From NCBI RefSeq assembly GCF_024700885.2, contig NZ_CP117016.1: a stretch of DNA of 64,000 bases; one strand, written 5' to 3'. The DNA comes from Escherichia coli (lineage in GTDB: Bacteria > Pseudomonadota > Gammaproteobacteria > Enterobacterales > Enterobacteriaceae). Of this stretch, positions 1,587 to 34,865 are shown in pieces. A program made the position numbers and the translations under genes. The notes below the pieces were generated by a model that was not told the DNA's origin, did no database searches, and saw nothing but the letters and a program-made list of their open reading frames with translations. The stretch's first letter is position 1; each line of letters begins with the position of its first letter.

Positions 1587-3053
1587 TCAGACTCCCCATT
1601 TCGGAATTGGATGGTCGCCCATGGAAATGCAGACGTTCTTCATTTCCGCGAACACTTCGAAGCTGTACTCACCGCCTTCACGCCCGGTGCCGGAGGCTTT
1701 TACGCCGCCAAACGGCTGGCGCAGGTCGCGCACGTTCTGGGTGTTGACGAACACCATGCCTGCTTCAATGCCACGCGCCAGGCGTAACACTTTGCTGACA
1801 TCCTGCGTCCAGATGTACGATGCCAGGCCGTACTCCACGTCGTTTGCCAGGCGTAAGCCTTCGGCTTCGTCTTTAAACGGCAGCAGGCAGGCGACCGGCC
1901 CGAAAATCTCTTCCTGGGCGACGCGCATACGGTTATCTACGTCTGCCAGCACGGTTGGGCGCAGGAAGTTGCCGCCTTTCAGATGTGCAGGCAGGTCAGA
2001 CGGTTTATCCGGGCCGCCCGCCAGCAGGGTTGCGCCTTCTTCAATGCCGAGACGGATATAGCCAGAGACTTTTTCCCAGTGCTGCTGGCTGATAAGCGCC
2101 CCAACCTGGGTATTCGGATCGTTCGGATCGCCCACGCGCAGACGGTTGGCGCGTTCGGCAAAGCGTTTAACGAATTCCGGGTAGATGCTTTGCTGAATAA
2201 AGATGCGCGAACCGGCGGTGCAGCGCTCGCCGTTGATCGAGAAGATGGTGAACAGGGCAGCGTCCAGCGCGCGTTCAATATCGGCATCTTCAAAAATCAG
2301 CACCGGCGATTTACCGCCCAGTTCCATGGAGTATTTTTTCAGCCCGGCGTTTTTCATGATGTTGCGCCCGGTGGCCGTACCGCCGGTGAACGACACGGCA
2401 CGTACGTCATGATGACGAACCAGCGCATCGCCTGCGGTTGCGCCGTAGCCCTGTACCACGTTCAGCACGCCCGCCGGAATACCGGCTTCCAGCGCCAGCT
2501 CACCCAGGCGGTCAGCGGTCAGCGGGGAGAGTTCCGACATTTTCAACACCGCGGTATTGCCCAGCGCCAGACACGGCGCGACCTTCCATGTGGCGGTCAT
2601 AAACGGCACGTTCCACGGCGATACCAGCGCACAAACGCCTACCGGTTGCACCAGCGTGTAGTTGAGCATCTTGTCGTCAACCGGATAGGTCTTGCCGTTC
2701 ATCTGCTGGCAGACTTCCGCGAAAAATTCAAAGTTGTGAGAAGCGCGTGGGATCAACACATTTTTGGTCTGATGGATTGGCAGGCCCGTGTCAGCGGTTT
2801 CCATCGCGGCGATCTCAGGCACGTTCTGGTCGATCAGATCGCCCAGACGGCGCATCAGGCGCGCACGCTCTTTCATCGGCAGATTGGCCCATTTCGGGAA
2901 CGCCTCTTTCGCTGCCGCTACCGCCTGATTGATCTCCGCTTCACCGCCAGAGGCCACATCCGCCAGCACTTCACCCGTTGCCGGATTGGTGGTCTGGAAG
3001 TAGTCGTTACCTGCAACATTTTTGCCGTTGATCCAATGATTTACTTTTTTCAT
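1587..3053 (-). CDS. hpaE: 5-carboxymethyl-2-hydroxymuconate semialdehyde dehydrogenase (NAD-dependent aldehyde dehydrogenase)
   Basis: 488-aa ORF with aldehyde dehydrogenase hallmarks (ELGGKSP; catalytic Cys in GERCTAGSR); 4-nt overlap with hpaG. Confidence 0.9.
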   Translation of the reverse strand: MKKVNHWINGKNVAGNDYFQTTNPATGEVLADVASGGEAEINQAVAAAKEAFPKWANLPMKERARLMRRLGDLIDQNVPEIAAMETADTGLPIHQTKNVLIPRASHNFEFFAEVCQQMNGKTYPVDDKMLNYTLVQPVGVCALVSPWNVPFMTATWKVAPCLALGNTAVLKMSELSPLTADRLGELALEAGIPAGVLNVVQGYGATAGDALVRHHDVRAVSFTGGTATGRNIMKNAGLKKYSMELGGKSPVLIFEDADIERALDAALFTIFSINGERCTAGSRIFIQQSIYPEFVKRFAERANRLRVGDPNDPNTQVGALISQQHWEKVSGYIRLGIEEGATLLAGGPDKPSDLPAHLKGGNFLRPTVLADVDNRMRVAQEEIFGPVACLLPFKDEAEGLRLANDVEYGLASYIWTQDVSKVLRLARGIEAGMVFVNTQNVRDLRQPFGGVKASGTGREGGEYSFEVFAEMKNVCISMGDHPIPKWGV

Positions 3054-4339
3054 TTCGCTGTTTCCTCACTCACAATTCGGTTCACCAGGCGGCCCACGCC
3101 TTCTACTTCCACTACTACTTCATCGCCAGGCACCACGTCAGATAAGCCTTTTGGTGTGCCGGTGGCGATCATGTCGCCCGGATTCAGGGTCATAAATTCG
3201 CTTAAGTAGGCGATCAGGAAGGGCACGCTGAAGATCAGATCGGCGGTGGTGCCTTTCTGGCGTAACTCGCCGTTGACGAAGGTGCGAAGGGTCAGATTAT
3301 GCGGGTCCGGGATCGCCTCTTTCGGCACGATGGTTGAAAGCATCGGCGTCAGTCCGTCGCGGCTTTTTACCCGCAGGTTAGGGCGGTAGTAGTTTTCCAG
3401 ATAGTCGCGAATGGCGTAGTCGTTACACACGGTGTAGCCCGCGACATAATCCATAGCATCGGCTTCGCTGACGTTACGCGCCTGCTTGCCAATCACCACC
3501 ACCAGCTCCGCTTCGTAGTGCATATACTCAATATTGTTCGGGCGCACGGAGGTCTGGTTATCGCCAGTGAGGGTATTCGGCGCTTTCAGGAACACCAGCG
3601 GTTCTTCCGGTGGCTTAAATTCCAGTTCGCTGGCGTGGTCGGCGTAGTTCAGGCCGAGGGCAAACAGCGTGCCGTGCGGGTGTGGCTGCGTTGGGAAGCT
3701 CTTGCGCGTGGTCACTTCACGTTCGTCCACTACCGGATTTTCCAGTGGCGGGAAACCTTCAGCGAGAACACGAACGCGATCGCCTGGCTGTATTTCCACG
3801 CGCGCCTGTGGCGTGCCGAGCAGAATGGCATCGCCTGGATTCAGCGTGGCAAATTCGCTCAGAGCGCTCAGCAACTGCGCGGCATTACGTTGTAAATCGG
3901 CGGTGTTCCAGTGATCGGCAGGACGTCCGTTGATCTCGGTATAGATGGTCAGATTATCGACATTGCTGAGAGCCACGGTTTCGCCAATGGGGCAGAATCC
4001 ATCACGACATTTTGCTTTGATTGCCGGGCGGTAAAAGCTCTCTTCCGGCAGGCTGACGTCGTTAGCCAGCGCATATCCGGCGATGTACTCTGCTGCATCT
4101 TCTTCACGTACTTTCGTCGCCGTTTTTCCCACAATCAGCGCAACAGTCGCACCGCTCAGTACCTTTTCACCCTGTGGAAAGGGAATCGGTTCACCGCAAC
4201 CAATCACCGTATTGCGCGGTTTAATAAACCAGACCGCAGTTTTAGGCGGGGCTTTGTAGGGGGATTGCTGGAACGCTTCCTGCCATGCATCAAGTTGGCT
4301 GCGATGGTTCAACGCTACGGCGAAGATAGTGCCTTTCAT
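3050..4339 (-). CDS. hpaG: bifunctional OPET decarboxylase / HHDD isomerase (FAH-family tandem domains)
   Basis: ORF 3050..4345; ATG at 4339 is preceded by GAGGAG and gives 429 aa (MKGTIFAV...); two FAH-like repeats are visible in the translation. Confidence 0.88.
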   Translation of the reverse strand: MKGTIFAVALNHRSQLDAWQEAFQQSPYKAPPKTAVWFIKPRNTVIGCGEPIPFPQGEKVLSGATVALIVGKTATKVREEDAAEYIAGYALANDVSLPEESFYRPAIKAKCRDGFCPIGETVALSNVDNLTIYTEINGRPADHWNTADLQRNAAQLLSALSEFATLNPGDAILLGTPQARVEIQPGDRVRVLAEGFPPLENPVVDEREVTTRKSFPTQPHPHGTLFALGLNYADHASELEFKPPEEPLVFLKAPNTLTGDNQTSVRPNNIEYMHYEAELVVVIGKQARNVSEADAMDYVAGYTVCNDYAIRDYLENYYRPNLRVKSRDGLTPMLSTIVPKEAIPDPHNLTLRTFVNGELRQKGTTADLIFSVPFLIAYLSEFMTLNPGDMIATGTPKGLSDVVPGDEVVVEVEGVGRLVNRIVSEETAK

Positions 4340-8250: not shown

Positions 8251-8464
8251 GCCGGACTCCTGTATTTATAATTTTAATTGTTTACGTAATTGTGCATTAC
8301 GCAAGGTTGACATTAACGGCAGGTTAAAGTTTTAGGACTTTACTACCGCTCACAAAAACATTTTTAGTCGACTGATTGTGAGCATAGGTAAGCGGGAATT
8401 TCCCGGTATTTATCTTTTGATAAAACCGTGCACCCGCTAATAGTTTGCTGTTTTTAATCCGTAC

Positions 8465-9379
8465 TTAATGAGCATAACGCGTGTTCTCATTAATGGATCG
8501 AATCATTGATTGTTTAGCTGAATTCAAATGGTTACGGAGCGCAAGGGTGGCATCCAGGTCACTGCGGCAAATCAGAGCACTGAGAATGGTCATATGTTCA
8601 TCGACGGCAATGATATTGCGCTGTTTAAGATCGCTTTCGTCCCATTGATAGTGAAAATGAAAGATGACTGAGATGATCTCAAGCGATTGATCAAAAAAGA
8701 TATTGTCGGCAGCTGAAAGCAGTAAGGAGTGAAAATCTCTGTCAAGTTGCGAGAACATGCGAAAGCTATTGCCGATGTTGTCACGCAGTAGCCGATGACG
8801 TTCGAGCATGGTTTTCGCCTGCAGCCAGCGAGGATCATGATCAGGCAGGTTGAGAAAGTGCTGAAGTGAATGAGTTTCGAGCATTTCGCGTAGCTCAAAC
8901 AGCTGCTCAGCGTAGGATTGATCGAATTGCTTCATGCTCCACTGGCCGCGCTTTTCGCTTTGAATAAGATTATAACGGCCGAATTTTAAAAGATATTCTC
9001 TTACTACAACCGGGCTGACACCCGCGGCCCGAGCCAGTTGCAGTTCAGAAAAAGTTTCCCCAGGGCGTAACTGGCGCTGGTTTATCATCGTGAAAAAAGC
9101 CTGCTCAAACACTTTGTTTTGTTCACTCATTGAAGCGGTAGTACAGGCGAAACCGTCATCATGGTCAGGTTTACGCGCAATAACATAGTCGTTTCCAACC
9201 TGCGTTAAGACGCCGCATTCGCGTAAGTGGCTGAGAATATGACGCACTGTAGTGCGGCTGATGTTGTACATTTCCGCCAGCGCACTTTGCGATGGAAGTG
9301 GGGAAGGGATATGACCCCGCGCCATATCATCAATGACCTGGTTAATCACATTGTGGCGTAAATTTTGTGAACGACTCAT
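8465..9379 (-). CDS. lgoR: GntR-family transcriptional regulator of L-galactonate catabolism
   Basis: 304-aa ORF with N-terminal HTH (MYNISRTTVRHILSHL), AGGAGG RBS before the ATG. Confidence 0.85.
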   Translation of the reverse strand: MSRSQNLRHNVINQVIDDMARGHIPSPLPSQSALAEMYNISRTTVRHILSHLRECGVLTQVGNDYVIARKPDHDDGFACTTASMSEQNKVFEQAFFTMINQRQLRPGETFSELQLARAAGVSPVVVREYLLKFGRYNLIQSEKRGQWSMKQFDQSYAEQLFELREMLETHSLQHFLNLPDHDPRWLQAKTMLERHRLLRDNIGNSFRMFSQLDRDFHSLLLSAADNIFFDQSLEIISVIFHFHYQWDESDLKQRNIIAVDEHMTILSALICRSDLDATLALRNHLNSAKQSMIRSINENTRYAH

Positions 9380-19605: not shown

Positions 19606-19692
19606 TGGTGCGAGGGGGGGGACTTGAACCCCCACGTCCGTAAGGACACTAACACCTGAAGCTAGCGCGTCTACCAATTCCGCCACCTTCGC
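19606..19692 (-). tRNA. leuV: tRNA-Leu (anticodon CAG)
   Basis: 87-nt minus-strand tRNA: GCGAAGGTGGCGGAATTGGTAGACGCGCTAGCTTCAGGTGTTAGTGTCCTTACGGACGTGGGGGTTCAAGTCCCCCCCCTCGCACCA, with long variable arm and encoded CCA. Confidence 0.95.
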
Positions 19693-19726
19693 ACAGTCAT
19701 CTTACTTTTTTTGATATCGCCTCGTT

Positions 19727-19813
19727 TGGTGCGAGGGGGGGGACTTGAACCCCCACGTCCGTAAGAACACTAACACCTGAAGCTAGCGCGTCTACCAATT
19801 CCGCCACCTTCGC
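19727..19813 (-). tRNA. leuP: tRNA-Leu (anticodon CAG), variant copy
   Basis: Same 87-nt tRNA with one substitution in the variable arm (plus strand gtaagaac instead of gtaaggac). Confidence 0.93.
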
Positions 19814-19841
19814 CCAGTGCGAGCAATATCAACGTGGTTTT

Positions 19842-19928
19842 TGGTGCGAGGGGGGGGACTTGAACCCCCACGTCCGTAAGGACACTAACACCTGAAGCTA
19901 GCGCGTCTACCAATTCCGCCACCTTCGC
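19842..19928 (-). tRNA. leuQ: tRNA-Leu (anticodon CAG)
   Basis: Third tandem copy, identical to copy 1; first transcribed of the minus-strand leuQPV operon. Confidence 0.95.
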
Positions 19929-22973: not shown

Positions 22974-23048
22974 ATGACGTTGTCTCCTTATTTGCAAGAG
23001 GTGGCGAAGCGCCGCACTTTTGCCATTATTTCTCACCCCAATAATTAA
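22974..23048 (+). pseudogene. prfC: 5' remnant of prfC (peptide chain release factor 3) interrupted by the prophage; attL region
   Basis: ATG at 22974 encodes [22 protein letters not shown], the RF3 N-terminus, then diverges inside the GTPase P-loop to NN-stop at 23046-23048. Confidence 0.75.
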
Positions 23049-24619: not shown

Positions 24620-26752
24620 ATGGAACTGTTACAGGAACACGGGGCGATACTTAAAGTTGTAATCATGCCTACTACTGGGGAACAAACCATAATCCAAGGT
24701 TTCGATACTGGCCTCCTCAACCCAGAGATATCCAACATTCTTTTTTTATTGGCCAAAACACCAAAAGAAATTAGTGAGATTTTTGTCAATGAAAATGATA
24801 ACTTTCAGCCTACTCTAAGCGGGCTAAATCCTATTTTTTTAATATCTAAAGAAAATCTTGAAAAAATACCAGATATTTATCAAACGCCATTTTGCTTAAT
24901 TTTTTGTGCTAAAGAAGATTTTTCGTATGTTTGTGCTTTAAAAAAACATTTTGCTATACCACCTATAATTTGTTGCAATTCTAAACGCGCTGATCTACCA
25001 CTTAATAAGATTAATAGTATATACTCATTTGATAAGGTGCTCTTCTCTCGGTTGAAATTCATTGAGGATAAAATAAGAAAAAATCACAGTGAAAAGAAAA
25101 TATCAACGAAGTTGAAGCGAAGAGGGGCTTTATTTAATAAATCACCTTGGAGATCGACGCTTAACAATTCAACACTACCCAATGAGTTGTTAATTGAATC
25201 ACTTGGCTATATGCTATCTCCACCAAAAAGAATTAAAGATGGTAGTAGCAAAAGAGAGTTTATAGAAATAATACTTCATAGCGTTGATGCATACACCGAA
25301 TGTTTAAAGGAATTAGATATACCACTTCCAACGGAAGTCTTACTTTTTGCTCCGGGTATGCACTCTTTTTTATATGATAAAAATAATGACTTTTATGAGT
25401 TAATAACGGAAAATTTATCCACAATTGAGAAAAAATTCCTTATTGATGGAGTGTTGAGGAATCCAGGCTATTCTGGAATTAGACTTGATATAAATTCAGA
25501 TAGAAAAGAACTTTTTAAAAGTCCTGCTTTCCGTTACCTCACCTCACTAAGACGAGCTGAAATGCGATTAACAACAGCTGCGATTACTTTATTTAGCATA
25601 AATAAAAAAATCCCAGCAATAAGATTGCCAAATGCAATAAATCATTACTCCAATTATTTGAAAAATCTTGAAGATCTTGCAACTTCTTCTGGGATAAATA
25701 GTGAAGCATTCATCACTAAATCTAAAGCATTCAATACTGTTATTCGAAGAGCCCTTGGTTGCAAGTTGAGAACATATATAAGTAAAAACTATAGCGATTT
25801 GTCCTTTGTTTGTGATGTACCATTGGATTGGATTAGGTTTAATAACATACCTATAATGTTCAGTCATGAGATATCAAGAATAAATGCTACGCCTGGTAAC
25901 GTTCTTCTACAGAGCGCCTCTGCTTTTCCGCGCGTTTTAGTAAAAGCATCTGAGTTGAGAAAGGTTTTAGTTATACGTTCTTTTGAGCCTGATGATCACT
26001 TAAAGTTCATATTAGAGAACGCAATTGAGATATTTAAAAAACAGATGCCAGATCTTGATTGCGAGATTATTGATGTTAGATCGAAAGCTGAGTTTATTGA
26101 TGCTCTAAATCAATATCAAGGTCATATTCTTGTTATGGATTGTCATGGAAACCATGATGGCAATGGGAGTCATGGATGGTTAATAATAGGTGAGGATAAA
26201 GTGGACACTTGGAGTTTGAGAAAAATAGCAAGAATTCCTCCTATCGTAATTCTGAGTGCATGTTTAACATCTGCCCTAAGTGGTTCTCATGCCTCTGTTG
26301 CTAATGGCTTCGTTATAAGTGGTGCATTAAGTGTCATCGGAACATTACTGCCTGTAAATGCGATAGACTCTGCTGTTTTTGTAAGTCGGTTGATCTACCG
26401 GTTTTACGAGTTTCCTTCGACGCTATCTACAAATTTTACACATGTTAATGTAAGGCTTTTTCTTTCTGTTTTTCTTAGGATGTCCTATGCAAGCGATTTA
26501 ATAAGAGGATTTTTATCTGAAGATTTGATACCGAATAATTCATGGAAGAAAGATGCAGTTGATATTAACATGTATATAAACATGCTTCACCATGATTGGT
26601 ATGATTATGTAATTAACAAATTGACGATGTTAACGGGGCTCACGAAAAAAGATGTACTTGATTTTATCGATAGAAAATTATTCATAACCGAAACTATGTG
26701 CTATAGCCAAATTGGATTTCCAGATGCAATCACAATTAGTCTTAAAGATTGA
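24620..26752 (+). CDS. large AT-rich cargo protein with C-terminal caspase-like (CHAT-type) His/Cys protease signature; candidate defence protein
   Basis: ATG at 24620 (AGGA 6 nt upstream) gives ~710 aa. C-terminal region HILVMDCHGNHDGNGSHGWLIIGE...IPPIVILSACLTSALSGSH...GALSVIGTLLPVNAIDSAVFVSRLIYRFY has the His (HG) then Cys (SAC) spacing of clan-CD peptidases. N-terminal ~500 aa unassigned. Confidence 0.7.
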   Translation: MELLQEHGAILKVVIMPTTGEQTIIQGFDTGLLNPEISNILFLLAKTPKEISEIFVNENDNFQPTLSGLNPIFLISKENLEKIPDIYQTPFCLIFCAKEDFSYVCALKKHFAIPPIICCNSKRADLPLNKINSIYSFDKVLFSRLKFIEDKIRKNHSEKKISTKLKRRGALFNKSPWRSTLNNSTLPNELLIESLGYMLSPPKRIKDGSSKREFIEIILHSVDAYTECLKELDIPLPTEVLLFAPGMHSFLYDKNNDFYELITENLSTIEKKFLIDGVLRNPGYSGIRLDINSDRKELFKSPAFRYLTSLRRAEMRLTTAAITLFSINKKIPAIRLPNAINHYSNYLKNLEDLATSSGINSEAFITKSKAFNTVIRRALGCKLRTYISKNYSDLSFVCDVPLDWIRFNNIPIMFSHEISRINATPGNVLLQSASAFPRVLVKASELRKVLVIRSFEPDDHLKFILENAIEIFKKQMPDLDCEIIDVRSKAEFIDALNQYQGHILVMDCHGNHDGNGSHGWLIIGEDKVDTWSLRKIARIPPIVILSACLTSALSGSHASVANGFVISGALSVIGTLLPVNAIDSAVFVSRLIYRFYEFPSTLSTNFTHVNVRLFLSVFLRMSYASDLIRGFLSEDLIPNNSWKKDAVDINMYINMLHHDWYDYVINKLTMLTGLTKKDVLDFIDRKLFITETMCYSQIGFPDAITISLKD

Positions 26753-26859
26753 CAACTGTATGTAATAAATATGGCATACTTCCGGCACAGAGCGAATATA
26801 ACAGATCAGGTTTAGCTCTGTGCCATAGGTGTACCAACTCTCATCTGAGCTAATGCTCG

Positions 26860-27054
26860 TTACTCAATAACTCCCGCAAATTTGTAAATCTTGCGTGATG
26901 CCCATTTATTTGGGCATGATTTAATATCAGGATCTGGAAAGTCTGGCCTGTATTTCTGGCCAGTTCTCCTGTTTACGCTGTTCCAGCGAAGAACTGTCGA
27001 TACTGATACTCCACAGAAGTTGGCGACTTGTTTAGTTGTCATTAAGTTGTTCAT
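26860..27054 (-). CDS. small HTH DNA-binding protein, putative excisionase / early regulator
   Basis: 64-aa ORF (MNNLMTTKQVANFCGVSVSTVLRWN...) with strong GGAGGT RBS; start overlaps the upstream stop (TAATG). Confidence 0.5.
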   Translation of the reverse strand: MNNLMTTKQVANFCGVSVSTVLRWNSVNRRTGQKYRPDFPDPDIKSCPNKWASRKIYKFAGVIE

Positions 27055-27674
27055 TACTTTACCTCCTGCGGCGGCTCCGGTAGCGGCATCCAGTGGGTTA
27101 CTTTCGATGCCGGTTCTTCCACATCGTCAGTAACTGCCCACCATTTGTTTCTCGACCAATCGTAATACCCTTCGAAGGTATCGCACTCAGTCCAGCCGTA
27201 AGACTTCCCCCAACACCAAACATACTGTTTATCGTTCGGCATTCGCTCACTACAGCTTATCCAACCATCCGGAGTTACCGGAGAGTTGCCCGACAGCTCG
27301 TTCAACTTGTAAGTCTGGCTTACAGGTTTGGCACCATGAAGCATGGCGGCGCGGCAGGCGTTCCAGCCTTCATCAAAGCCGACTATGCCATTATTTAAAG
27401 ACGGAAGAGCATCCGGCACCACCGACACTGGCTGAGCCATATATAGCGGCTGAACATACCAGCCCTTTGATAACCAACTGTCAGCAATGTTTTTGCTCCT
27501 GGTTATTGCCGGAATACCTAAGCCATTGTCTGAATGAAGCCACGCCACCGGCTCTGCTTCCAGTGATGCCAGAGCAATTTCATAAGCAAGGCGCTCAACA
27601 TTGTCTCGCACGTCTAGGCTGCCGATTCGTTCTTTGATTTCTTTAATCTGTTCCTTATCGGTGTAAGTGGTCAT
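27054..27674 (-). CDS. phage protein with DUF551-like C-terminus
   Basis: 206-aa ORF ending ...KVTHWMPLPEPPQEVK, a motif I recognise from prophage DUF551 proteins. Confidence 0.65.
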   Translation of the reverse strand: MTTYTDKEQIKEIKERIGSLDVRDNVERLAYEIALASLEAEPVAWLHSDNGLGIPAITRSKNIADSWLSKGWYVQPLYMAQPVSVVPDALPSLNNGIVGFDEGWNACRAAMLHGAKPVSQTYKLNELSGNSPVTPDGWISCSERMPNDKQYVWCWGKSYGWTECDTFEGYYDWSRNKWWAVTDDVEEPASKVTHWMPLPEPPQEVK

Positions 27675-28030
27675 TATGCTCCAGCCTCCGGTGCTTTTGG
27701 CATTACTGCCCAGTGAGTGATATTAATATTTTCAAGGTCCCCGATCTGAAATGTCCACTGCCATTCTCCGGTTTCTTTTTGTCCCCAGGTGTACCAGAGA
27801 GAACGCCAGCCAATCAGCCAGCCTTCTCCGTTAGCATCAAATAACAGAACACTTTCATTTGCTGGTGGCAGTTCAACTGATACTGGTATTACTTTGTTTT
27901 CCTGTGCTGCACATTTAGCTTCAAGCGCATCGAATTTACGCTCCAGGTATTTAGCATCCGTTTCATTCACTTTCAGGTCTCGTGGTACACATCTCCCGTG
28001 AAGAAACCCTTCCATTTCGAAAACATTCAT
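27674..28030 (-). CDS. phage hypothetical protein (YfdS-like size and position)
   Basis: ~118-aa ORF; ATG at 28030 overlaps the upstream stop (ATGA coupling); the similar C-terminal ITHWAVMPKAP motif suggests relation to the neighbouring DUF551 gene. Confidence 0.55.
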   Translation of the reverse strand: MNVFEMEGFLHGRCVPRDLKVNETDAKYLERKFDALEAKCAAQENKVIPVSVELPPANESVLLFDANGEGWLIGWRSLWYTWGQKETGEWQWTFQIGDLENINITHWAVMPKAPEAGA

Positions 28031-28563
28031 GCGCATTTGCGTAACTCCGATAACTCGTTAAAACGTTCCATAAACATCCCGTAGGCATGGCCCGGAGCCA
28101 GTGGAATAACTTTGAACATCTCTGTTGCCGGGATACCTTCCAGTACTGGCCAGAAAGAGCCATCATCAAGCCCGAGGTCGCGGCGTTCAGTTGCCAGCAT
28201 GATGAGATCGGCATATTTCACAGGCGTGCTCATAACCGGGGGTAACCCGAATTTCTCACGGATTACGGCGTCTATTTTTTCTTCCATCCGTTTATAGTCA
28301 GGAAGAAGGCGTTTCAGTGGCGCGGGGATGTCCTGACAATACGCTTCTGTTGCATCATGCATTAACGCTTCAAAAGCAAACTCCTCCGGAACCAGTTTGC
28401 TGCAAAGCACCGCATGTTGGGCGACGCTGTAGAAGTGTGAAAGATGACCGGCAAAGCGACAGATATTTGAAAGGGAAACTGCGATATCGTTAATCACGAT
28501 GTCGTCTTTATTTATCCTGTCATAATAAAAATGCTTCCCGGAAAAAGTTTTAATAAATGACAT
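28027..28563 (-). CDS. HD-domain phosphohydrolase (YfdR-like 5'-deoxynucleotidase)
   Basis: ATG at 28563 preceded by GGAGAA; 178 aa; HD motif residues in RFAGHLSHFYSVAQHAV...LMHDATEAY. Confidence 0.75.
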   Translation of the reverse strand: MSFIKTFSGKHFYYDRINKDDIVINDIAVSLSNICRFAGHLSHFYSVAQHAVLCSKLVPEEFAFEALMHDATEAYCQDIPAPLKRLLPDYKRMEEKIDAVIREKFGLPPVMSTPVKYADLIMLATERRDLGLDDGSFWPVLEGIPATEMFKVIPLAPGHAYGMFMERFNELSELRKCA

Positions 28564-28657
28564 TTTGTTCTCCACTTTATATGCGCTGCACCGCGCTGAA
28601 TTTTGGTTAAAGAAAACCCTCGCCATCAGGCGATTATTGAGTTAATTACGTTTCCAT

Positions 28658-28679
28658 AAATGCCCCCGCAGGGGCATTT
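28658..28679. other. perfect 10-bp-stem hairpin between early-left genes
   Basis: aaatgccccc-gc-aggggcattt; it shares the 13-nt string tccataaatgccc with a site at 30300-30312. Confidence 0.35.
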
Positions 28680-28691
28680 GCAGTAATGAAA

Positions 28692-29516
28692 TCAGGCGGT
28701 GAAAGTACCAATAAAGGTTTCTACTTTGCTGTCTTTGAATTTTTCAACAAGCAGATCACGAAATTCGTTAGCCATTTCTTCCTGCACTGCTTCCAGCTGA
28801 ATAATGCGCAGAACCAGTACAGGGCGATCACCAGTGATAATGCTGAGGCGTAATTTAAACGGACGTTCTTTCAGGCCTTCAAACGGAACGCATTTAAACT
28901 CAAATGCTACTGGCATAATGTCTTTGGTTTTCGCTTCGACAGACTCCATCAGAGAGCGTTTGCCGCTGAAGTCATTGTCTTCAAAATCAGCGGTCTGGTT
29001 TGCTTCAATCGTGATTTTACGGACCGCCGCAGCCGCTTTTGTTGCCTGAATGGCGTCACCATTAGCATCAAAGCCCACAAGGTAGTCGGCCCAGTCTTCA
29101 ATCCATTCTGCCAGTGACTTCTGGGAGTTACGCTCGCCGTTAACAGACAACAGGGCAGAGAACGGTGCTGTCTTTTTCAGTTTGAGAGTGGCGGTGTTAT
29201 CTGCGTGACCTGGTTCATCAATAGTACCCAGGTTAAGCACACTGACGGCTCGCATATTATCAGCATCGATAAAGCAGCGGGTGCCTTCATCTGCAAGATC
29301 TTTAGAATAACGGGTAAAGTCATCGATGCTGGCAGTGGAAAGCGCACCACGGAAACGGAAGCGATTTAAATTAAATTTTTCCAGATCATGAATGCGGAAA
29401 TTCTCAGGCAATGCCACAGCATCGGCACCAATCTTACTGATAATTTCATTAACACCCTGAGCAGAAATAAGGGCATGGATTTGATTAATTGCGGTTGCGT
29501 CTAAGTTCTGAGACAT
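28692..29516 (-). CDS. phage protein, YfdQ-like (DUF2303-type)
   Basis: 274-aa ORF ([21 protein letters not shown]...), same length and order as CPS-53 yfdQ next to the HD-domain gene. Confidence 0.65.
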
Positions 29517-29581
29517 AATAAGTCCTCACTATATAAAGATATTCAGTGATGAGATAAATAATCAGTTTATTAAAAACGATA

Positions 29582-29944
29582 TTAACGACCTGCTGCGCGG
29601 AGTTTTCCGTCAGGTTCACCGGCAAGAGTCAGTAATTGTCCCTGGTCTTCCTGCAGAATAGTCAGGCGACCACCGCGATTGACATACATCGGCGTTTCGG
29701 TGGTGTCTTCTTCGGAAATTTTCCCGCGGTTAGTCGGGCGAACATATGAGAGTTTGTGTTTGATTTTTACACGGTTCTCATCAAACGGTTCGATTTCCAG
29801 GTTGAGCGAGACCTTACCTTTGGTTTTCGTGTTCATCACACCGGAAGCGACTTCACTGAGAACAGCGCCGATTTTGGTTTCAAATACGCCGCCGTCCAGC
29901 TCCCCGATAAATGCCTGCACATCAGTACTGCGTTCGCTAGCCAT
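29582..29944 (-). CDS. phage hypothetical protein (YfdP-like), first gene of the early-left operon
   Basis: ATG at 29944 preceded by GAGGAG gives 120 aa (MASERSTDVQAFIGELDGGVFETK...); the longer listed ORF 29582..30175 is an upstream extension. Confidence 0.6.
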   Translation of the reverse strand: MASERSTDVQAFIGELDGGVFETKIGAVLSEVASGVMNTKTKGKVSLNLEIEPFDENRVKIKHKLSYVRPTNRGKISEEDTTETPMYVNRGGRLTILQEDQGQLLTLAGEPDGKLRAAGR

Positions 29945-29992
29945 TTTGCTGCTCCTCATCATATCGACCCTGCAAGGTCGGTTGGTTTCTCC

Positions 29993-30127
29993 ACAAAACA
30001 GAGAAGAACACCTGCGGTGGCAGCCGCCCGGATGGATTGGGTTATGAGCCCGTCGTCCGGTGATGCCCTTCTCTGTTTTGTAAAAAGAGCGGTACCAGCC
30101 GGAAGCAAGTGTACAAACTGGTACCGC
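29993..30127 (-). other. two tandem stem-loops in the pL-proximal leader (candidate structured RNA element)
   Basis: SL-I has a 14-bp perfect stem, acaaaacagagaag (29993-30006) pairing with cttctctgttttgt (30068-30081). SL-II has a 10-bp perfect stem, gcggtaccag (30089-30098) pairing with ctggtaccgc (30118-30127). Neither is followed by a U-run on either strand. Confidence 0.35.
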
Positions 30128-30574
30128 CAAAGCAGTGGCTGTTGTGGTGGGGTTGTCACTCAGGCGTATGGTCAACCTGACAATCCGGTGTCCTCAACGG
30201 GGAAAGAGTAACCCCGCCATACTTACCGCCGCGCCATTTCGCGGATTACCACAACGCTGAGAGCACTTAGCCAGTTACGGCACCACACTTTGTCGCGGTT
30301 CCATAAATGCCCTCATCGTTGCACCCTGGTCTCTTCCCAGGCGTCAAACCGGATCGCCACGCTGGTTAGGCGTCTTATCAGCATCATCATTGACTTGCAC
30401 ATTCCGGCTACCTGGTTTGTTTGCCCGAGCAAGGAGTGGATTGTCCCCTTTAACGTCCCCAGACCGCTAACGACGCATGTGCCATACGCCGTGTTACAAC
30501 CAAATTTAGTTTAATCTTGCCTGTGTTATGTTTCTTTTAGATACATTATGTATCTCAAGGGTACATTGTCAAGT

Positions 30575-30599
30575 ATAAAAAAACCTGCCGAAGCAGGTT
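30575..30599 (-). terminator. rho-independent terminator of the cI transcript
   Basis: aacctgc-cgaa-gcaggtt hairpin followed on the minus strand by a U-run, just downstream of the cI stop. Confidence 0.65.
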
Positions 30600-30610
30600 A
30601 TAAATATTGA

Positions 30611-31285
30611 TTAGGCCTTTATTTTGTATCTTCTTGGTTTTCCCGAGAAAATCACTGTACCAATTATAGAGCAATTACCGTTAATCTTAATGTAAGGCTC
30701 AGGCCAGTTTGGGTTTAATGCTTTGAGATAACGCTGTGTTCCATCTTCTATCAATCGCTTGAAGGTGGTTTCGCCTGTATCGTGCATCAATGCAATAACG
30801 TCGTCACCGTGGCAGGCAGGGACTTCGGGATCAACAAAAATCATGTCTCCAGGGCGGTACTCATCAATCATTGAATCACCAATCACCCGCAAGATATAAG
30901 TCATTTCGCCACAGGGTACAGGGCAGGGGTAAGTTTCTGCTGTGCTCAAATCAACCTCAGAATAGCCAACTTCTTTCCATGCTCCGGCCTGTACCCATGA
31001 TATGACAGGGACTAACGTTATTTGTTTGTTAGTGATTGAAACATCAGGTTTTTTTGTGATGTTCGTGGTCTGGTGTTCTTGATCAAGCCATCCGACAGGC
31101 AGGTCGAAACATTTTTCGATGTGCCGCGCCATGCTGTCACCGATATTTTTAGTAGCACCATCTCCCATAAACCTGCTGGTCTGGGTTGGCTCGCGATCAA
31201 TCATGGTGGCAAAGGAAGAATTCCCGCCAACACCATCTCTCAGTTTTCTGGCGTTAGACCGCCGGATGTCATGGATTGTTTTCAT
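30611..31285 (-). CDS. cI: CI-type prophage repressor (HTH plus S24 LexA-like autopeptidase domain)
   Basis: 224-aa ORF; N-terminal HTH region and C-terminal S24 features (GDSM...; Lys in FKRL); divergent from cro. Confidence 0.85.
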   Translation of the reverse strand: MKTIHDIRRSNARKLRDGVGGNSSFATMIDREPTQTSRFMGDGATKNIGDSMARHIEKCFDLPVGWLDQEHQTTNITKKPDVSITNKQITLVPVISWVQAGAWKEVGYSEVDLSTAETYPCPVPCGEMTYILRVIGDSMIDEYRPGDMIFVDPEVPACHGDDVIALMHDTGETTFKRLIEDGTQRYLKALNPNWPEPYIKINGNCSIIGTVIFSGKPRRYKIKA

Positions 31286-31375
31286 AACGAAATTAAAACC
31301 TTTGTACCGATAAGGTACAAGTATCTTGAAGGTTCATTTCAATCATGTAATATGTATATCGGAGGTACATATTGT
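31286..31375. promoter_or_regulatory. cI / cro divergent promoter-operator region (pRM / pR)
   Basis: Palindrome ttgtacc-gataa-ggtacaa (31302-31320) plus ATGTA/TACAT half-sites around 31345-31375 that overlap the cro RBS. Confidence 0.6.
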
Positions 31376-33233: not shown

Positions 33234-34048
33234 GTATGGAGCTGATGGTTAAAGCGATGAAAATTCGAGTGGGTAATCCATTGCGAAAACTGGTTCTGAT
33301 CAAGCTGGCTGATAATGCCAGCGATCAGGGTGAGTGCTGGCCCAGCTACCAGCATATTGCTGACCAGTGTGAGATTAGCAAACGTTCTGTGATGAATCAT
33401 ATTGCGGCCCTTTGTGAGTCCGGGCTGGTAAAAAAAGTCACCCGGAAAGGTGAAAAAGGTAACTCAAGTAATATCTATCTCCTTCATCTGGATGGTGCAG
33501 GAGATTCACTAGGGGGTAGTGCAAATAATTCACTATCTGGTGCAGCAAATTCACTAGGTAGTGCAGGAGTTGCACCAGGGGGTAGTGCAGGAGATTCACC
33601 CAGAACCAGTCACTCTTTTGAACCAGTCAAAGAACCAGTCAATGAACCAATAGCTGTTGGTGCATCAGTTGATGAGTCCGTGCGAGTTCGTTCAAACCGA
33701 CCGGAATACTCTCCGGAGTTTGAGCAGGCATGGCTGGCATATCCCAAACGTGCTGGTGGCAATTCAAAATCTGCAGCCTTCAAAGCCTGGAAAGCCCGTT
33801 TGAATGAGGGGGTAAACCCCGAAACCATGCTGGAAGGTGTGAAACGCTACGCGGGCTGGGTATCTGCGATGGGTAACAGCGGCACACAATTTGTGAAACA
33901 GGCTGTCACGTTCTTTGGTCCGGATCGTCATTTCGAAGAATCCTGGGAAGTTCCTGCGGTATCTGCAGCTAGACGTGAGGACCCGTACTTCAAAGCCAGT
34001 TACGACAACGTGGACTACAGCCAGATCCCGGCAGGATTCAGGGGGTGA
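33230..34048 (+). CDS. putative replication initiation protein (N-terminal winged-helix, Gly/Ser linker)
   Basis: 272-aa ORF; N-terminal segment LVLIKLADNASDQGECWPSYQHIADQCEISKRSVMNHIAAL resembles phage replication-initiator HTH domains; low-complexity GGSANNSLSGAANSLGS linker. Confidence 0.55.
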   Translation: MSMELMVKAMKIRVGNPLRKLVLIKLADNASDQGECWPSYQHIADQCEISKRSVMNHIAALCESGLVKKVTRKGEKGNSSNIYLLHLDGAGDSLGGSANNSLSGAANSLGSAGVAPGGSAGDSPRTSHSFEPVKEPVNEPIAVGASVDESVRVRSNRPEYSPEFEQAWLAYPKRAGGNSKSAAFKAWKARLNEGVNPETMLEGVKRYAGWVSAMGNSGTQFVKQAVTFFGPDRHFEESWEVPAVSAARREDPYFKASYDNVDYSQIPAGFRG

Positions 34049-34050
34049 TC

Positions 34051-34539
34051 ATGAGTCTTTTGAATGAAGTTCAGAAATTCATTGAAGCCCATCCGGGGTG
34101 TACTTCCGGAGACATTGCGGATGCTTTTGCAGGTTACTCACGGCAGCGCGTTCTGCAGTCAGCAAGCAAGTTACGTCAGAGTGGGCGTGTGGCTCACCGT
34201 TGTGAAGGAGATACACGCAGACATTTCCCACGCCTGACTGAGAGAGCGCAGGAGCCGGAACCACAACCAGTTCGTGAAACCAGACCTGTGCGCAATTTCT
34301 ATGTCGGCACTAACGATCCCCGGGTGATTTTGTGCCTGACCCGCCAGGCGGAAGAACTGGAGTCCAGGGGCTTATACCGTCGTGCTGCAACGGTGTGGAT
34401 GGCGGCATTCCGTGAAAGCTACTCCCAGCCAGAACGAAACAATTTTCTGGCGCGTCGTGAACGGTGTTTACGGAAAAGCAGTAAGCGGGCTGCATCAGGT
34501 GAAGAGTGGTATCTGTCAGGGAATTACGTGGGGGCTTAA
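34051..34539 (+). CDS. PerC-family transcriptional activator-like protein
   Basis: 162-aa ORF; segment AEELESRGLYRRAATVWMAAF matches the PerC-family core as I recall it. Confidence 0.5.
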   Translation: MSLLNEVQKFIEAHPGCTSGDIADAFAGYSRQRVLQSASKLRQSGRVAHRCEGDTRRHFPRLTERAQEPEPQPVRETRPVRNFYVGTNDPRVILCLTRQAEELESRGLYRRAATVWMAAFRESYSQPERNNFLARRERCLRKSSKRAASGEEWYLSGNYVGA

Positions 34540-34865
34540 TGACGACGTTAACTCAATGCCAGCAGCAGGTGCTGGATATGCTGATTTCTTACCAGAAAGA
34601 ACGTGGCTTCCCGCCAACCAATCAGGAGGTGGCAACCATGCTGGGATACCGTTCGGTGAATGCAGCGGTGGAGCATCTTCGCGCACTGGAGAAAAAAGGC
34701 GTCATCACGATAAAGCGTGGCGTGGCCCGGGGGATAACGCTTCATACCGCGGTGAAGGACGACGACAGCGAGGCTGTCGGGATTATCCGCTCACTGCTTG
34801 CCGGTGAGGAAAACGCAAGGCTGCGTGCAACCCACTGGCTACATGAGAGAGGCCTGAAAGTATGA
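34539..34865 (+). CDS. small protein with LexA-type N-terminal DNA-binding domain
   Basis: 108-aa ORF (MTTLTQCQQQVLDMLISYQKERGFPPTNQEVATMLGYRSVNAAVEHLRALEKKGVI...) closely resembling the LexA winged-helix domain; no peptidase domain. Confidence 0.55.
   Translation: MTTLTQCQQQVLDMLISYQKERGFPPTNQEVATMLGYRSVNAAVEHLRALEKKGVITIKRGVARGITLHTAVKDDDSEAVGIIRSLLAGEENARLRATHWLHERGLKV

Follow-up and report, generated by a model that had tools for sequence, protein, structure and literature searches.

The yfdPQRS module in the apparent early-left operon of an Ayreon-like Escherichia coli prophage, with a proposed link to host replication initiation

The closest described counterparts of the genes considered here are those of the CPS-53 (KpLE1) prophage remnant of Escherichia coli K-12, in which yfdP, yfdQ, yfdR, yfdS and yfdT lie in that order. 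A block with the same first four genes, yfdPQRS, is present on the minus strand of a 64,000-nucleotide (nt) stretch of E. coli chromosomal DNA (contig NZ_CP117016.1 of assembly GCF_024700885.2; hereafter the window), within a prophage that is nearly identical to phage Ayreon. In K-12, yfdQRT or yfdQRS supplied in multicopy is able to suppress mutants that over-initiate and, in the wild type, to inhibit initiation at oriC, a phenotype that requires yfdQ, yfdR and either yfdS or yfdT, with yfdP being dispensable (PMC4776307). Cell extracts oversupplied with YfdQRST also inhibit oriC replication in vitro (PMC4776307), and the statement in a first-pass annotation of the window that overexpression of the K-12 yfdQRST cluster inhibits replication initiation is confirmed by this literature (Noguchi & Katayama 2016, PMC4776307). 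K-12 YfdR binds domain I of DnaA in a Phe46-dependent manner and competes with DiaA and DnaB, the same surface being used by Bacillus subtilis SirA (PMC4776307). YfdR has been likened to lambda P, DiaA and SirA, the common scheme being a protein that binds the host initiator DnaA and thereby reduces initiation at oriC (PMC4776307). Lambda P differs, however, in binding domain III of DnaA; its likeness to YfdR is functional, with no sequence relationship being claimed. Production of YfdQ, for its part, is reported to cause a resident phage to form plaques (preprint 10.1101/413146).

Related clusters have also been described in phages. Many lambda-like prophages of E. coli have the yfdPQRS block shortly behind the leftward promoter that their repressor controls. 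Early-left operons of lambdoid phages commonly contain a yfdP/yfdQ/HD cluster (PMC12315714, 2025), and the lambdoid phages ST64B, LLS, phiNP and SfV carry the same yfdP/yfdQ/HD-phosphatase gene set in such an operon. The product of SfV orf32 is 100% identical to YfdP of the window, and YfdQ of ST64B is 57% identical to the window YfdQ. The clusters of these four phages nevertheless differ from that of the window in their diverged sequences and in the other DUF551 or Eae-type genes that flank them.

Identity of the yfdPQRS block and its early-left setting

Comparison by BLASTP with the reference proteins of K-12 MG1655, taken from the CPS-53 region of NC_000913.3, gave full-length identities of 98.3% for YfdP, 99.3% for YfdQ, 96.6% for YfdR and 91.7% for YfdS (Table 1). 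At the DNA level, positions 27550-29963 of the window match K-12 with 95.5% identity over 2414 bp and a single gap. The order of transcription in the list of open reading frames (ORFs), yfdP-yfdQ-yfdR-yfdS from 29944 down to 27674, and the product lengths (120, 274, 178 and 120 amino acids, aa) are the same as in CPS-53. Chance cannot explain protein identities of 92-99% together with 95.5% DNA identity, and the assignment of the block, as judged from sequence, to the yfdP-yfdQ-yfdR-yfdS accessory module of lambdoid phages is close to certain. The match in gene sizes and order that had been proposed in the first-pass annotation was therefore borne out by near-identical orthologues in the same order. 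Three of the sizes given there (120, 274 and 178 aa) are correct, whereas the fourth product, put at about 118 aa, has 120; and the span from 27054 to 29944 that was assigned to the four genes does contain them, but also takes in a fifth gene that went unmentioned, encoding a 206-aa DUF551 protein (27674-27054).

A stretch 100% identical to that of the window is found in E. coli WP2-S18-ESBL-08, in which the genes are labelled by RefSeq as yfdP, YfdQ family protein, yfdR (5'-deoxynucleotidase), hypothetical protein and DUF551 protein. Since RefSeq names the genes and PMC12315714 describes the cluster as common, the block is already known, and its recognition here is a correct identification and no discovery. 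Little weight is attached to it as such, standard pipelines naming the genes and the literature calling the module a common early-left cluster; its value lies instead in the context, in that a near-Ayreon prophage presents yfdPQRS in a native, repressor-controlled setting. The K-12 experiments, in comparison, used a decayed remnant without promoter, operators or immunity region. Ayreon is a plaque-forming phage that grows on K-12, and it should consequently provide a practical system in which the roles of YfdR-DnaA and YfdP-YfdQ could be followed during real induction.

The block forms part of a run of six co-oriented genes with short or overlapping junctions (ORF list), which ends with a gene for an excisionase (Table 1). 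The cI-type repressor gene ends in a terminator, immediately beyond which a strong pL-like sigma-70 promoter is predicted, overlapped by two adjacent operator-like 20-mers. The intergenic region of cI and cro has related 20-mers at 31318-31337 and 31351-31370, which brings this repeat family (D1; inverted repeat I1) to 4 copies. This layout, with the repeat present twice over the promoter and twice in the cI/cro region, is the pattern expected of shared operators, and we infer from it that the repressor would bind at these sites. The location of the promoter downstream of the repressor gene, and the repeats held in common with cI/cro, indicate a true early-left operon, a label that is well supported by the sequence and that agrees with the first-pass annotation.

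Table 1. Features of the early-left region (positions are those of the window; E, expect value)
Feature	Position	Strand	Description
cI-type repressor gene	30611-31285		S24 peptidase domain
Intrinsic terminator	30582..30599	-	Hairpin AACCTGCTTCGGCAGGTT then T-run; ends repressor gene; terminator scan; annotated in Ayreon
pL-like sigma-70 promoter	30545..30572	-	TTGACA-16 nt-CATAAT, 11/12 matches; predicted by promoter scan; annotated in Ayreon
Operator-like 20-mers	30527..30566		Two, adjacent, ATGTA-N10-TACAT type; overlap promoter; repeat analysis
Leader	29945..30544	-	About 600 nt from promoter to yfdP; no convincing gene
Leader segment	30133..30255	-	89% identity to K-12 Qin prophage sequence immediately preceding dicF
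DicF-derived hairpin	30082..30131	-	TTTGGCGGTACCAGTTT, then 10-bp stem GCGGTACCAG/CTGGTACCGC and TCTTTTT
yfdP	29582..29944	-	phrog_204; RefSeq name yfdP; K-12 YfdP over 120/120 aa, E 3e-88
yfdQ	28692..29516	-	DUF2303, PF10065; K-12 YfdQ over 274/274 aa, E 0
Hairpin	28658..28679	-	AAATGCCCC-TGCG-GGGGCATTT; directly past yfdQ stop codon, no T-run
yfdR	28027..28563	-	HD-domain phosphohydrolase, orthologue of DnaA-binding K-12 YfdR; K-12 YfdR over 178/178 aa, E 9e-135
yfdS	27674..28036	-	C-terminal DUF551-like domain; 10-nt overlap with yfdR; K-12 YfdS over 120/120 aa, E 8e-86
206-aa DUF551 mosaic gene	27054..27674	-	YfdT-like N-terminus, unrelated middle, C-terminal DUF551; phrog_60
Excisionase gene	26860..27054	-	64 aa; last operon gene; phrog_1553 excisionase, E 2e-35

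YfdP was assigned to phrog_204 with an E of 1e-49. Its database homologues carry PF27127, and it gave no match in the Pfam copy that was scanned, which has no PF27127 model. As in K-12, yfdP is directly upstream of the DUF2303 gene yfdQ, from which it is separated in the window by 65 nt. YfdQ scored 309.7 bits against PF10065 (cut-off 26.6), with profile positions 2-269 of 269 being covered, and matched the 'YfdQ protein' of PDB entry 9o7m (E 1e-44), a 274-aa homologue deposited with 36 chains; a search of the available literature found no paper mentioning this entry. The AlphaFold models of YfdQ and YfdP are of moderate confidence, with predicted local distance difference test (pLDDT) scores of 74.5 and 68.9, respectively, and a Foldseek search with them against a PDB set without 9o7m returned nothing at E<=0.001. 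A fold-based assignment of function to either protein was dropped on account of these two results. The Ayreon record annotates a terminator at the position of the hairpin that follows yfdQ, and a weak, sub-threshold match (23 versus 47 bits) to STnc100, a Salmonella small RNA in Rfam, falls in the yfdQ-yfdR spacer (28520-28700, minus strand).

The 178-aa YfdR product, for which HD motifs had been predicted, retains the metal-binding residues H50, H69-D70 and D119, which align to the HD protein Atu1052 (PDB 2gz4, E 5e-14), and also keeps E73 and D78, the HD/E/D segment aligning to YfbR. A longer ORF of 199 aa is present, although RefSeq and K-12 both take the 178-aa start. Six substitutions separate the protein from its K-12 orthologue (R16K, K56Q, E60Q, F105Y, K151N and E170D), with the HD residues being untouched. 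YfdR fell narrowly below the Pfam cut-offs, with near misses to YfbR-like PF12917 (24.7 versus 25.9) and HD_3 PF13023 (17.1 versus 22.5), and its membership of the HD superfamily is accordingly based on the motif and on the homology to 2gz4. Comparison with YfbR (PDB 2paq) revealed conservation of the HD dyad followed by Glu and Asp (HDAxE...D.P.P.K), as well as of the distal Asp motif; overall similarity to YfbR is however marginal (E 0.64), Atu1052 being the closest solved relative. The name 5'-deoxynucleotidase used in the first-pass annotation agrees with the RefSeq label, which goes back to biochemistry on the K-12 protein that reported a low affinity (as quoted in PMC4776307), but fared less well against the NCBIfam YfbR equivalog model (NF003009), where YfdR scored 20.5 bits as opposed to the 122 required, and YfdR as a YfbR equivalog is ruled out. 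YfdR was also assigned to phrog_318 (E 5e-109), which bears the label 'deoxyribonucleoside 5' monophosphate phosphatase'. Phage T5 Dmp, a deoxynucleotidase considered as a possible HD homologue of YfdR, was rejected, since it showed no similarity by BLASTP and belongs to a different PHROG; the phrog_318 label is thus at most a functional analogy.

YfdS falls into phrog_583 (E 6e-80) and matches DUF551 (PF04448) marginally, at 21.1 bits against a cut-off of 22, a threshold that the 206-aa protein exceeds with 62.5 bits. The first 42 aa of the latter are 76% identical to YfdT by BLASTP, while the remainder is unrelated to YfdT. Intact copies of yfdQ, yfdR and yfdS, the set required for replication inhibition in K-12, are therefore present in the window; of yfdT, no more than the initial 42 codons are left. 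In the GenBank record of Ayreon the DUF551 gene (SJJBTUD_0030) is mislabelled as 'valyl-tRNA synthetase'. The 64-aa excisionase showed no similarity by BLASTP to TorI of CPS-53.

The leader and its DicF-derived hairpin

Homology to CPS-53 of K-12 ends at 29963, shortly upstream of yfdP. Further into the leader, the segment related to the Qin prophage aligns by blastn to the sequence preceding dicF with 110 identities in 123 positions (E 4e-44), and is followed by a hairpin whose core, TTTGGCGGTACCAGTTT, matches DicF at 16 of 17 aligned positions. A 19-nt deletion at the hairpin takes away the 5' end of DicF, and folding indicated that its 3' half has been swapped for a different, perfect 10-bp stem (GCGGTACCAG/CTGGTACCGC) followed by TCTTTTT. 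The Rfam DicF model (RF00039) found no match in the leader even at E<=10. Pairing of the hairpin with the ftsZ leader was equalled by 227 of 300 shuffled sequences, as against 39 of 300 for K-12 DicF. A functional copy of DicF was rejected on the basis of these two results. The element probably descends from DicF but serves as a terminator or attenuator and not as a working DicF. It resembles the Qin DicF locus in having a hairpin and U-tract at the same relative position, and differs from it in the downstream gene, which is dicB in Qin and yfdP in the window. Of 5426 complete E. coli genomes, 1423 have the DicF-derived variant, unannotated, at a coverage of at least 80%. Two genomes that were sampled, whose repressor is of another (XRE) type, likewise have it immediately upstream of yfdP-yfdQ-yfdR-yfdS.

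Proposed action on host replication and competing explanations

The orthology of the proteins, their intact motifs and the layout of the operon are observed in the window, and can be combined with the K-12 work into a proposed sequence of events. In the lysogen, the cI-type repressor with its S24 peptidase domain would keep the promoter at 30572-30545 shut. Cleavage of the repressor in the SOS response would then permit leftward transcription via the 600-nt leader into yfdP, yfdQ, yfdR, yfdS, the DUF551 gene and xis. The HD-fold protein YfdR would bind domain I of DnaA at the Phe46 surface also used by DiaA and DnaB and, together with the required YfdQ and YfdS, would restrain new rounds of oriC initiation during replication of the phage from an origin of its own; a weak deoxyribonucleoside monophosphate (dNMP) phosphatase activity of YfdR would be a secondary trait. 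That YfdR, with YfdQ and YfdS, damps host oriC initiation upon induction is, by analogy with K-12, the reading with most support, plausible though somewhat short of being probable, and both the action during induction and its benefit to the phage are matters that we infer. When this mechanism is taken together with the far firmer identification of the block, the combined reading, of a yfdPQRS module in its native repressor-controlled early-left operon acting in the manner proposed, is considered moderately likely.

The distribution of the components of the module was examined by tblastn against 50,697 phage records. YfdP was found in 180 records and YfdQ in 184, with nearly identical counts per genus (15 and 15 records for Xanthomonas, 26 and 26 for Stx2a phages, and 27 and 32 for Vibrio). 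Relatives of YfdR were found in 341 records with a different spread, including phages of Bacillus, Caulobacter, Rhizobium and others, whereas full-length YfdS was present in 41 records, all from enterobacterial phages. A YfdP homologue lies directly upstream of a YfdQ homologue in Vibrio phage 44E38.1, Xanthomonas phage Sopo and Pseudomonas phage PG1 (positions 2540-3828, 2574-3828 and 2609-3831 of the respective phage segments), the three upstream genes being recognised as YfdP homologues by hhalign with probabilities of 99.2-99.4% and E of about 1e-19 to 1e-21. In none of these three phages does an HD gene stand beside the pair. Its neighbours in Vibrio phage 44E38.1 encode a YqaJ-type exonuclease, an RNase T-like exonuclease, a single-stranded DNA-binding protein (SSB) and a Tad2-like protein, and a recombinase gene is found near the pair in Xanthomonas phage Sopo. 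These differences in distribution indicate that the block is composite: a widely conserved YfdP-YfdQ pair is combined with an HD protein that moves independently and with mosaic DUF551 genes of enterobacterial phages. The conserved unit, on this distribution, is the YfdP-YfdQ pair and not yfdQRST.

Several observations weigh against the replication-initiation mechanism. Deletion of yfdQRST in K-12 was without an initiation phenotype, the effect having needed multicopy genes, and the authors themselves allow for an overexpression artefact (PMC4776307). The K-12 evidence being confined to multicopy conditions, the mechanism would apply to an inducible phage by analogy. In addition, yfdT, as established by BLASTP, is not conserved in the window. 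The near one-to-one co-occurrence of YfdP and YfdQ without an adjacent YfdR points to a function of YfdQ that is independent of YfdR and DnaA, and the presence of HD relatives in many lytic phages, whose hosts have differing DnaA proteins, is a better fit to an enzymatic role. Lastly, with a DicF-type hairpin and U-tract positioned between the promoter and yfdP, much of the transcription could be terminated before the block is reached.

It could be, then, that YfdR is chiefly an enzyme, a phage phosphohydrolase of dNMPs or ribonucleoside monophosphates that reshapes nucleotide pools during lytic growth, with its binding to DnaA being incidental. The intact H...HD...D residues, the phrog_318 and RefSeq names, and the occurrence of homologues among the 341 records in lytic phages of Bacillus, Caulobacter, Rhizobium and Stenotrophomonas that have no YfdP or YfdQ would all be consistent with such a role. 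Compared with YfbR, however, YfdR was reported to have a much lower affinity for nucleotides, and its function was described as elusive (Zimmerman 2008, quoted in PMC4776307); the failed YfbR equivalog and the missed YfbR-like Pfam model speak against it as well, as does the need of the K-12 phenotype for yfdQ and for yfdS or yfdT (PMC4776307), and this explanation is regarded as unlikely. A second possibility shifts attention to YfdP and YfdQ, which might constitute an unrecognised accessory for DNA recombination or replication that replaces a missing Rec module. No exo/bet/gam, recET or erf genes were found in the early-left operon (ORF list, Pfam and PHROGs), and Chi sites in Ayreon number 14 on the top strand versus 4 on the bottom, with the same strongly skewed counts in the window, which fits the class with 'no Rec module, many Chi' (PMC12315714). 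The pair is often beside exonuclease, SSB or recombinase genes, as in the Vibrio and Xanthomonas phages above, and stands out among lambdoid phages devoid of any Rec module; the 36-chain deposit of the YfdQ homologue suggests that YfdQ may form a large oligomer; and a yfdQ deletion is reported to be sensitive to methyl methanesulfonate (MMS) and hydrogen peroxide (cited in PMC4776307). Conversely, PMC12315714 argues against such a replacement, because in phage ArgO145 the cluster coexists with a complete Rec module, and the structural models are only of moderate confidence. The idea seems improbable, and so, to a similar degree, does its extension to the whole block, in which the functional core would be YfdP-YfdQ as a large oligomeric replication or recombination accessory, DnaA binding by YfdR an enterobacterial add-on, and the DicF-derived hairpin a regulated attenuator acting on the entire module.

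Two further explanations were considered. If the block were cargo that benefits the lysogen, its expression there would help the host to withstand oxidative, acid or alkylation stress, in keeping with the greater sensitivity reported for K-12 deletions of CPS-53, yfdQ or yfdS to hydrogen peroxide, acid or MMS (cited in PMC4776307). With the promoter overlapped by operator-like repeats, and the genes sharing a transcription unit with xis, expression of the block should however be absent from a stable lysogen. This very control region has been lost from CPS-53, such that the K-12 stress phenotypes may reflect deregulated remnants. A role as lysogen cargo is accordingly viewed as very unlikely. 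It is just as doubtful that one or more of the genes serve to counter host anti-phage defence. Their placement in a variable early accessory region, the mosaic DUF551 and N-terminal domains that shuffle between phages, the Tad2-like anti-defence gene near the YfdP-YfdQ pair in the Vibrio phage, and the potential of HD phosphohydrolases to degrade nucleotide signals could be cited in its favour, against which Pfam and PHROGs matched no known anti-defence family and PADLOC, which covers defence and not anti-defence, gave no matches for the Yfd proteins. That same PADLOC result led to rejection of the idea that the Yfd proteins themselves act in defence against phages.

The prophage and its relation to Ayreon and CPS-53

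From position 22997 the window is 99.8% identical to phage Ayreon across 19 kb, and identity is 98.4% in the 18 kb that follow. Within this, positions 26800-30620 are 100% identical to Ayreon (MF807953) and 98.4% identical to phage cdtI (NC_009514), such that there is essentially no difference from the early-left region of Ayreon, in whose record the genes are called 'hypothetical'. The left junction of the prophage lies within the first 23 codons of prfC (22974-23042): the window is identical to K-12 up to TTTGCCATTATTTCTCACCC and thereafter follows the Ayreon attP, which has TTTGCCATTATTTCTCACCC as its core and brings a substitute 5' end for prfC. The right end of the prophage is beyond the 64-kb window.

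The prophage is not CPS-53 itself, an identity that is ruled out by the prfC site and by a different integrase and excisionase. CPS-53 uses the argW site, IntS and TorI, whereas the window prophage has an integrase with only 22% identity to IntS and an excisionase unrelated to TorI. A second CPS-53-like block is nevertheless present, in which positions 33973-34542 match yfdN/yfdO (8385-8954 of the K-12 segment) with 97.7% identity, and the two shared blocks are separated by about 4 kb in the window, including the leader, the promoter, the repressor gene and cro, versus about 0.6 kb in K-12. On account of this second block and the difference in spacing, CPS-53 looks like a relative that has lost its control and immunity region; indeed, K-12 has neither the promoter and operators nor the leader and immunity genes. 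The K-12 yfd genes studied so far look, as a consequence, as though orphaned from their native control.

Elsewhere in the prophage, a 710-aa protein with a CHAT domain is encoded between int and xis (24620-26752, plus strand) on a low-GC island (33-38% GC). It matches the PADLOC defence model BovA (E 1e-241) and is probably anti-phage defence cargo of the prophage. Outside the prophage, three tandem tRNA-Leu(CAG) genes at 19606-19928 on the minus strand correspond to leuQPV, and are followed by rsmC, holD, rimI and yjjG as in K-12.

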